From assembly GCF_038871235.1 (NCBI RefSeq), contig NZ_JAVZIN010000001.1, positions 64,001-128,000 on the forward strand: DNA of 64,000 bases. The letters run 5' to 3'. The position numbers and the translations under genes are program-made. The DNA comes from Candidatus Hadarchaeum sp. (GTDB taxonomy: Archaea > Hadarchaeota > Hadarchaeia > Hadarchaeales > Hadarchaeaceae). Of this stretch, positions 18,241 to 47,829 are shown piece by piece. The notes beneath the pieces were generated by a model. That model saw nothing but the letters and a program-made list of their open reading frames with translations. It did not search any database and had not been told where the DNA came from. Numbering within the stretch: position 1 is the first letter of the stretch; each line of letters begins with the position of its first letter.

Positions 18241-18348
18241 TGGTGCGGGGGAGGGGATTTGAACCCCCGAACTCCTTCGAGACCAGCCCCTCAAGCTGGC
18301 GCCTTAGGCCGGCTTTTGAGACCATTGACCTGGCTAGGCTACCCCCGC
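18241..18348 (-). tRNA. tRNA-Leu(GAG) with 20-nt intron at 21/22 (D-arm)
   Basis: GCGGGGG/CCCCCGC acceptor, CCAGC-TT-GAG-GG-GCTGG anticodon arm, long variable arm, GGTTCAAATCC, CCA. Confidence 0.92.
18305..18324 (-). other. tRNA-Leu intron 21/22 (TGGTCTCAAAAGCCGGCCTA)
   Basis: BHB GGTC-AA^T...GGCC-TA^A; excision restores GGTCAAAGGCG. Confidence 0.85.
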
Positions 18349-19170: not shown

Positions 19171-19284
19171 ACCGACACCAAAATCGTCCTTCAAGATGTT
19201 GTGTTCAGCTTAAATATTGCTTTCGGTGGGGTTTAAAAACACACACCAGGGCCATGAGACGGTAAATCGGGCCCTGGGTCAAAA

Positions 19285-19383
19285 TGGCGCCCTTCGGCAG
19301 AGCTATTGCTCCTTGGCCGGGATTTGAACCCGGGGCGGAGCCTCGACAGGGCTCCATGTTAGACCGGGCTACACCACCAGGGC
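19285..19383 (-). tRNA. tRNA-Asp(GTC) with 21-nt intron at 68/69 in the acceptor stem
   Basis: GCCCTGG...GAGCC-CT-GTC-GA-GGCTC...GGTTCAAATCCCGGCCA[intron]GGGCGCCA; splicing restores CCAGGGC-G-CCA. Confidence 0.9.
19293..19313 (-). other. tRNA-Asp intron 68/69 (AGGAGCAATAGCTCTGCCGAA)
   Basis: strict hBHBh': CC/GG, CGGC/GCCG, bulges CA^A and AA^G, inner GGAGC/GCTCT. Confidence 0.88.
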
Positions 19384-19537
19384 CCAAACTCACTAAATAA
19401 TGTCTCGGTTTAAGACGCTTATGTCAGGTAGAGGTCCGCGGAAGTAAATACCCAACCAGCTGGCCCGCGCTCTTTTGGTGCTAAACTCACGAGTAACTCA
19501 CCATATGGTAAACCTTGACAAAAGAACTAAAATCAAC

Positions 19538-19659
19538 GGTTGGCAGCGAACCGGGCTTCCCTTTGGCTTGCGCACAAAAGTACAACCCGATACGCAGGCG
19601 AGCTTGACTTCCGGGATCTGACGAGACCGGGTATTTCCTCGCCGCTATGGCCGCCAACC
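19538..19659 (-). rRNA. rrf: 5S rRNA
   Basis: GGTTGGCGGCCATAGCGGCGAGGAAATACCCGGTCTCGTCAGATCCCGGAAGTCAAGC...GCTGCCAACC, about 122 nt with paired ends. Confidence 0.92.
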
Positions 19660-19696
19660 GAAATTATTGTTGTCCACTCAGTTTTAAAAGCTTGTG

Positions 19697-19833
19697 TGGT
19701 CCCGCGGGGGAGAGTTTCAGCGGCTTAATCCGCGTTTGAACTCCCGACATTTACCGGAATCCTCTAGATTCTGTCGGTTTCAGCGCGGTTTGGGTCTACA
19801 GCCGACCACTCTACCAGGCTGAGTTACCGCGGG
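19697..19833 (-). tRNA. tRNA-Tyr(GTA) with three introns (37/38, 43/44, 59/60)
   Basis: C1-G72 CCCGCGG/CCGCGGG-A-CCA; GTCGG-CT-GTA-G...; removing 19779-19795, 19751-19772 and 19714-19734 gives a normal cloverleaf. Confidence 0.88.
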
Positions 19834-47716: not shown

Positions 47717-47829
47717 TGGTGGGCCCGGAGGGCTTCGAACCCTCGACCACCCGGTTTCCCCGGTCAACCTATGAGCCTCGCCCAACTTCTTCAGTTGTCG
47801 GGCGCTCCACCAGGCTGAGCTACGGGCCC
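47717..47829 (-). tRNA. tRNA-CAT (probably Ile2, agmatidine) with introns at 30/31 and 37/38
   Basis: GGGCCCG/CGGGCCC-A-CCA; removing 47777-47798 and 47756-47769 gives CCCGG-CT-CAT-AA-CCGGG; Ile vs Met identity inferred from the GGGCCC acceptor. Confidence 0.87.

Follow-up and report, generated by a model that had tools for sequence, protein, structure and literature searches.

Non-canonical introns of archaeal tRNA genes are placed by the review of Yoshihisa (2014, PMC4090602), in the portion of its text used here, at positions 20/21, 22/23, 25/26, 29/30, 30/31, 45/46, 53/54, 56/57 and 59/60. These sites cover the D, anticodon, variable and T arms, and position 3/4 is described in the same pages as "an extreme case". 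The intron that we describe shares with the non-canonical introns of Crenarchaeota/Thermoproteales and Thaumarchaeota the BHB motif and the same presumed enzymes, EndA and RtcB, as well as an underlying logic: one half of the BHB is built from exon sequence, and the motif sits wherever the exon allows it. It differs from the listed introns in lying at the far 3′ end of the tRNA (68/69), in leaving an exon of 8 nt and in coming with a conserved complement in the flank. It also differs in its host, a member of Hadarchaeota, with further cases in records of Bathyarchaeia, Ca. Terraquivivens and Nitrososphaerales. An intron within the acceptor stem and a few nucleotides from a tRNA end is known at the opposite end of the molecule as well, at 3/4 in Thermoproteales tRNAs (Sugahara 2008, cited in that portion of PMC4090602).

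For the pairing of the flank, the nearest idea comes from split tRNAs. The halves of split tRNAs in Nanoarchaeum, Caldivirga and Aeropyrum carry flanking leaders that pair beside the BHB, for example through a 14-bp G/C-rich stem (PMC3218864, relevant passages). There too, sequence outside the mature tRNA pairs and holds the pieces for EndA and a ligase. In the locus presented here, in contrast, there is a single transcript, the flank pairs with mature tRNA sequence and not with another flank alone, and the pairing is not immediately beside the BHB.

Hadesarchaea, the same lineage as our organism, were reported to have an alpha4-type EndA with an extra L3 loop and more disrupted tRNA genes (Kaneta 2018, PMC5829648); the genome studied here has one 179-aa EndA gene, and the main text of that paper, as far as covered, gives no intron positions. 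The first-pass annotation of this DNA had taken 68/69 for an unfamiliar intron site, and this claim to novelty is weaker than it was put. "Acceptor stem regions" already figure among archaeal intron sites in the introduction of a 2025 paper (PMC12397907), and the available part of an Asgard preprint (10.64898/2026.10.13.758758) speaks of a small number of acceptor-stem intervening sequences. Acceptor-stem introns are therefore not new as a kind. The covered text of PMC3293823 contains no occurrence of Asp or acceptor, and that of PMC3728597 nothing on an acceptor-stem intron. The 68/69 position itself was not found in the literature searched, slash notation and supplementary intron tables lying outside that search. 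Nor did the same literature describe a complement in the flank as going with terminal introns, and we present this association, of a trailer or leader complement with such introns, as new. As regards detection, tRNAscan-SE 2.0 is described, in the section of PMC8450103 on this routine, as extending candidates by 60 nt to find introns near the ends.

An insert between positions 68 and 69 of tRNA-Asp(GUC)

The window, that is, the whole stretch of 64,000 nucleotides analysed, belongs to a 1.2-Mb assembly of Ca. Hadarchaeum, in 16 contigs, that is 94.75% complete. That it holds an interrupted tRNA-Asp gene is confirmed. The parts of the gene and of its upstream region are as follows:

19285..19383, minus strand: whole tRNA-Asp(GUC) gene, intron included, CCA encoded, 99 nt
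19314..19383, minus strand: exon 1, tRNA positions 1-68, 70 nt
19316..19321, minus strand: exon side of the BHB, C61-C62 (helix h) and C63-C66 (helix H)
19293..19313, minus strand: very probable BHB intron, 21 nt, made of the first bulge nucleotide, the h′ hairpin GGAGC-AAUA-GCUCU, the H 3′ strand GCCG and two bulge nucleotides
19285..19292, minus strand: exon 2, G69-C72, G73 and CCA, 8 nt
19408..19415, minus strand: A/T-rich box (TCTTAAAC), 25-32 nt upstream of the tRNA 5′ end

The division first proposed, with an insert of 21 nt and a 3′ exon of 8 nt, is exact by count and leaves 70 nt for exon 1, and the insert lies in a strict hBHBh′ motif just as had been claimed, with the helices and the 3-nt bulges in place. 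Helix h pairs C61C62 with G70G71, H is formed by CGGC and GCCG, h′ by GGAGC and GCUCU around the loop AAUA, and the bulges, CAA and AAG, stand on opposite strands. The flanking helices h and h′ of hBHBh′ introns have at least 2 bp; here h has 2 bp and h′ 5 bp, so that both reach this threshold. H and h′ are also present in the minimum-energy fold of the 99-nt gene. The exon side of the motif consists of the T-stem 3′ strand and the first acceptor nucleotide. Because the BHB draws on the T-stem 3′ strand, the BHB and the T stem are mutually exclusive.

In archaea, the BHB cut falls after the second nucleotide of the bulge. Applied in silico, this rule gave what the first reading had anticipated, an intact acceptor stem (7/7 pairs) followed by G73 and CCA. 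The splice junction can be slid by one base (A|A) with no change in the product, which is letter-for-letter the uninterrupted Asp gene of a relative (L010). One detail had to be corrected: the junction is five nucleotides (GGGCG) from CCA, not four. The identity as tRNA-Asp follows from the anticodon gtc (ARAGORN), from G73 after the restored stem and from the Rfam tRNA match. A split or permuted tRNA gene was ruled out; the exons are adjacent, in order, on the same strand and 21 nt apart. Upstream, the TCTTAAAC box is likely to be an archaeal promoter, and comparable boxes are found at similar distances in relatives. With the box as promoter, the leader would be just a few nucleotides long.

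Gene finders mis-call the gene, as had been predicted: ARAGORN and Rfam both read it as one uninterrupted gene (19383-19308/9). In this uninterrupted form the acceptor stem is broken, again as first described, with 5/7 pairs and pair 1-72 lost. Its Rfam score of 40.9 bits is the second lowest among the seven Rfam tRNA matches of the window, versus 54.6 bits for the uninterrupted gene of L010.

As to the surroundings, a 5S rRNA gene (93.6 bits; 19538-19658, minus strand) lies directly upstream of tRNA-Asp, with a tRNA-Tyr gene at 19696-19832 on the same strand; the order of 5S followed by Asp recurs in L010, L013 and L017. Two further tRNA matches longer than 100 nt, both on the minus strand (18244-18348 and 47720-47829), are Trp and Met genes with an intron according to ARAGORN run on the genome, in keeping with how many of its tRNA genes are interrupted.

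A single Asp gene and the splicing enzymes

ARAGORN finds one Asp gene in the genome of the window. BLAST matches elsewhere in the genome are only Glu and His tRNA look-alikes, so that the check for another tRNA-Asp proposed at the outset came back empty from both searches. One EndA gene was detected (PF01974, 115.5 bits), in a frame of 179 aa; its best matches among solved structures are the EndA chains 5x89, 4fz2 and 1a79, and it aligns over its full length with the last of these, the alpha4 enzyme of M. jannaschii. An RtcB gene is present as well (PF01139, 601.7 bits).

Conservation, covariation and distribution of the insert

An insert at the same place, followed by the same 8-nt exon 2, is found at 12 of the 30 loci that BLAST fetched from 40 relatives. 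Since both the place of the insert and exon 2 are conserved in relatives, a chance origin of the insert is excluded. A pattern scan of 185,579 species genomes (one genome each) returned 31 stretches, 25 of them tRNA-Asp genes with the insert; the other six are chance matches in other tRNAs or in bacteria. After duplicates and three 5′-truncated genes (L035, L048 and L060) had been dropped, 24 distinct interrupted genes were aligned. The inserts of the interrupted genes are 18-30 nt long.

Over these 24 genes, the cells of the BHB are paired in 98.1% of cases, versus 28-56% when the partners are slid. Helix h′ is 96.6% paired and shows changes on both sides in 4 of its 5 pairs, and the covariation score of the intron was reached by none of 500 shuffles. 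Helix H is 99% paired and invariant except for two G-U pairs and one mismatch. The 2 bp of helix h are the same in all 24 genes; as this helix never varies, covariation neither supports nor contradicts it. Exon 2, which the collecting patterns required, is also invariant in all 24, and the perfect acceptor stem seen in all of them is partly forced by the same patterns; the counts are not independent because the interrupted genes are related.

Within Hadarchaeota, 66 genomes were compared: 17 have the interrupted 3′ end, 37 an uninterrupted one, none has both, and 12 have neither. All 17 interrupted cases belong to one family, and the spread is uneven down to the level of the genus, one genus having the intron in 2 of 14 genomes, for example. 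Beyond Hadarchaeota, the 68/69 insert appears under three record labels, with the same H helix and the same or nearly the same bulges: in records labelled Bathyarchaeia or Bathyarchaeota (L033, L038, L039 and L061), in Ca. Terraquivivens (L034, with L063 similar) and in records labelled Nitrososphaerales (L035 and L043). The exact insert pattern occurs in 3 of 401 sampled genomes of the class around L043, which points to a rare intron there or to an exact pattern that misses variants.

The covariation, the identical product in a relative, the absence of a second Asp gene from the searches of the genome, the mutual exclusivity of the two forms and the enzyme genes together uphold the first-pass reading of a BHB intron at 68/69 of tRNA-Asp. 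On this comparative sequence evidence, we regard it as very probable that the insert at 68/69 of tRNA-Asp(GUC) is a real spliced intron. One could read the gene unspliced instead: it would be a pseudo-tRNA in decay, or else the tRNA would keep its mismatches in the acceptor stem, and the downstream GGGCGCCA would be a coincidence. ARAGORN and Rfam do accept the uninterrupted reading above threshold; however, it leaves the acceptor stem with the two missing pairs noted above in a genome where no other Asp gene was found, deprives 17 genomes of a sound tRNA-Asp and has no place for an intron hairpin that covaries. We consider this reading highly improbable.

Two side observations concern the interrupted genes and their relatives. 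CCA is encoded after G73 in 12/12 interrupted Asp genes obtained by BLAST and in 25/25 true pattern matches, but only in 4/14 Asp genes that lack the 68/69 intron; candidate causes are common ancestry, some requirement of the short exon, or a vestige of the way in which the intron was gained. Other inserts occur in tRNA-Asp genes, too. A D-loop insert of about 28 nt is present in some (L018, from genome G004; L023, from G005; L044 and L045), and G005 has the D-loop insert without the 68/69 insert, whereas G004, of the same genus, has both. A T-arm insert is seen in L024 (L024/L048), L028 has a canonical anticodon-loop intron, and the copies from Bathyarchaeia (L038, L039 and L061) have two to three inserts.

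A trailer complement accompanies the intron

The 3′ trailer of the gene can pair with the exon-1 piece, leader included, in two overlapping ways:

19267..19283, minus strand: candidate trailer clamp element, with two overlapping pairings
19377..19387, minus strand: leader -4..-1 plus acceptor 5′ strand G1-G7, partner of the trailer
19324..19336, minus strand: nt 45-58 (variable loop, T-stem 5′ strand, T loop), alternative partner of the trailer

Trailer nucleotides +8..+18 (19277-19267) form 11 consecutive base pairs with leader -4..-1 and G1-G7 (-24.0 kcal/mol), and +2..+14 (19283-19271) form 11 of 13 possible pairs with nt 45-58 in the window gene. The two pairings are mutually exclusive. 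In the genus of the window, the leader and acceptor 5′ strand match the trailer better than the T arm does, and the acceptor 3′ strand recurs in the trailer as a perfect copy, a surrogate strand. The leader-plus-acceptor type is also seen in L007, L024, L036, L054 and L061, whose leaders and trailers differ and yet match each other. In most other lineages the trailer is the reverse complement of nt 45-58, with 9-13 of 13 pairs, and in nearly all interrupted genes of Hadarchaeota this T-arm pairing keeps the register +2..+14.

The copy of the acceptor 3′ strand raises another reading, in which CCAGGGC in the trailer would be the true acceptor strand and the intervening sequence would run for about 40 nt from C66. 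The copy is indeed perfect in the window genus. Under this reading, however, the discriminator would be C and no CCA would follow, no BHB flanks such an insert, and most other lineages are without the copy yet keep GGGCGCCA. This makes it less credible still than the unspliced reading, and we continue with the intron at 68/69.

The complement goes with the intron. Trailers were shuffled 200 times for each of 23 interrupted genes (L044, with a trailer of 3 nt, was excluded); for 18 of them, no more than one shuffle matched the real trailer in pairing with the defined targets, namely the T-arm 5′ half or the leader plus acceptor strand. None of the 14 Asp genes without the 68/69 intron reaches this level. 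The best trailer energy is -20 kcal/mol or lower in 16 of the 23 and -11.4 kcal/mol or weaker in 12 of the 14; the trailers of the two exceptions among the latter run into a neighbouring tRNA gene. Five of the 23 interrupted genes have no clear complement within 32 nt of trailer, and in two of these five (L036 and L054) it lies further out, at +26.

Compensatory changes are seen in the trailer pairings. Over 22 genes (L044 and L024 dropped), with the T-arm register chosen as the best for each gene in both the 13-bp pairing and these counts, the pair between nt 46 and the trailer is C-G in 13 and A-U in 5, that is, paired in 18, while permuted trailers gave a mean of 10.8 paired and reached 18 in 0 of 2000 permutations; the pair of nt 49 is C-G in 15, U-A in 3 and U-G in 4. 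Within the genus, leader -3 and its trailer partner appear as U-G, C-G and U-A, plus one mismatch. The outer helix was aligned for the 11 of 24 genes that are Hadarchaeota rows of equal spacing: it is 84.6% paired, and the whole nested structure 90.9%, versus at most 52% when slid. The covariation score of this 11-row alignment was reached by 29 of 500 shuffles, a weak control because the exons hardly vary.

The trailer element of the window is, in addition, the 5′ arm of a hairpin (CCAGGGCC ... GGCCCUGG; 19245-19277, minus strand) whose 3′ arm lies at 19252-19245; it is seen in this genome only, same-genus relatives being without the 3′ arm.

Binding and folding energies

At 37 and 70 °C, respectively, the computed binding energy between the exon-1 piece and exon 2 is -5.0 and -2.7 kcal/mol when exon 2 is alone, and -12.3 and -9.1 kcal/mol when 20 nt of trailer follow it. 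The means over 23 genes at the two temperatures are -7.8 and -4.4 for exon 2 alone, and -12.7 and -9.1 with the trailer. As exon 2 alone binds weakly, and more strongly with the trailer, we read the trailer as a clamp, a role for which the sequence evidence leaves the chances, in our estimate, evenly balanced.

Ensemble folding shows no promotion of the BHB by the trailer; only the T stem falls. At 37 °C, helix H has a mean probability of 0.35 without and 0.31 with the trailer, and the T stem one of 0.39 and 0.30; at 70 °C, the corresponding values are 0.31 and 0.42 for H, and 0.28 and 0.14 for the T stem. In the window gene, H already has a probability of 0.95 without the trailer at 37 °C. 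Among the 36 tRNA genes of the genome, the duplex between the Asp trailer and its gene is the strongest (-25.4 kcal/mol), with a z-score against shuffles of only -0.8.

These figures bear on two alternatives that accept the intron and deny the tether. The first grants splicing but no splicing role for the trailer complement, which would be baggage inherited with the gene cassette or a hairpin for 3′ termination or processing. The missing clear gain in BHB folding and the unremarkable z-score within the genome fit such a view, and one ancestral cassette may also have fixed the encoded CCA (12/12 vs 4/14). Yet the complement has been kept while exons, hairpins (18-30 nt) and spacers diverged over three or more lineage labels, the changes at nt 46, nt 49 and leader -3 are compensatory, and an unrelated tRNA-Asn presents the mirror arrangement at its 5′ end (see below). 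We hold this alternative to be possible, although rather unlikely. According to the second, the trailer is a folding switch only, opening the T arm so that the BHB can form, with no tethering of the exon. The drop in T-stem probability agrees with this, as does the trailer of most lineages, which pairs with nt 45-58, the very strand that loses its partner once the 3′ strand of the T stem is taken up in the BHB. A pure switch, on the other hand, does not suit the genus of the window and several lineages that prefer the leader and acceptor 5′ strand, leaves the leader copy of tRNA-Asn unexplained and is at odds with a probability of H that barely changes; it seems to us unlikely, and more so than a complement without any role.

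A mirror arrangement in tRNA-Asn

The window holds a second tRNA gene with an insert close to one end, in this case the 5′ end:

53378-53227, minus strand: tRNA-Asn(GUU) gene, CCA encoded
53378-53371, minus strand: tRNA-Asn exon 1, 8 nt
53370-53355, minus strand: insert at 8/9, 16 nt, in a BHB (H CGGG/CCCG, bulges GUU and ACA)
53389-53383, minus strand: leader copy of the tRNA-Asn acceptor 5′ strand, four bases upstream of exon 1

ARAGORN missed this gene, and its Rfam match covers only model positions 9 to 63. It also has a long intron at the usual anticodon-loop site. The leader copy could pair with the acceptor 3′ strand. Among relatives, such a copy is present in 15 of 15 tRNA-Asn genes with the 8/9 insert and in none of the 3 uninterrupted ones. 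The tRNA-Tyr gene upstream of 5S has three introns, none of them terminal, and thus provides no third test of the clamp idea.

Based on the two genes, we tentatively propose, at slightly less than even confidence, that terminal BHB introns (within about 8 nt of either end) come with a surrogate pairing strand in the flank, which would act as a pseudo-acceptor or clamp helix so that splicing comes before RNase P and 3′ trimming. For 68/69 introns, the trailer would repeat the acceptor 3′ strand or complement the T-arm 5′ half; for 8/9 introns, the leader would repeat the acceptor 5′ strand.

Proposed course of splicing

For the locus as a whole, we consider it likely that we are dealing with a single functional tRNA-Asp(GUC) gene that has a BHB intron at 68/69 and a trailer that may clamp its tiny exon 2. 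The steps of cutting and joining, the clamp role and their order are what we infer from the sequences. The precursor would fold with the T-stem 3′ strand entering the BHB and with the intron hairpin as h′. The 179-aa EndA would then cut after the second nucleotide of each 3-nt bulge. Ligation of A68 to G69 by RtcB would give back an acceptor stem of 7 bp, followed by G73 and CCA.

Exon 2 has just 8 nt, and we take the 3′ trailer to be built, for this reason, to pair with the exon-1 piece. In the window gene, the trailer would stand in for the acceptor 3′ strand by pairing with the leader and the acceptor 5′ strand; its partner in most other lineages would be nt 45-58, a strand set free when the T stem opens. 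Such a clamp would tether exon 2 through cutting and joining, and it would disfavour the cloverleaf until the intron has been removed. The helix of leader and trailer lies across the RNase P site, an indication that splicing would precede the trimming of the ends.

Implications

If annotation pipelines read the gene unspliced, a quarter of the Hadarchaeota species genomes would appear to have a poor tRNA-Asp, a pseudo-tRNA or none at all, and the same error would touch some Bathyarchaeia and Nitrososphaeria. Beyond annotation, these genes pose a mechanistic question, namely how an exon of 8 nt is retained between the cut by EndA and the joining by RtcB in lineages whose record names refer to hot springs. 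The conserved, covarying flank complement, mirrored in tRNA-Asn, offers a concrete and testable answer. It may also serve as a sequence signature for hidden terminal introns, and it predicts the order in which the precursor is processed. If the proposal is true, it would be the flank clamp that allows terminal introns to be retained in three or more lineages of archaea.
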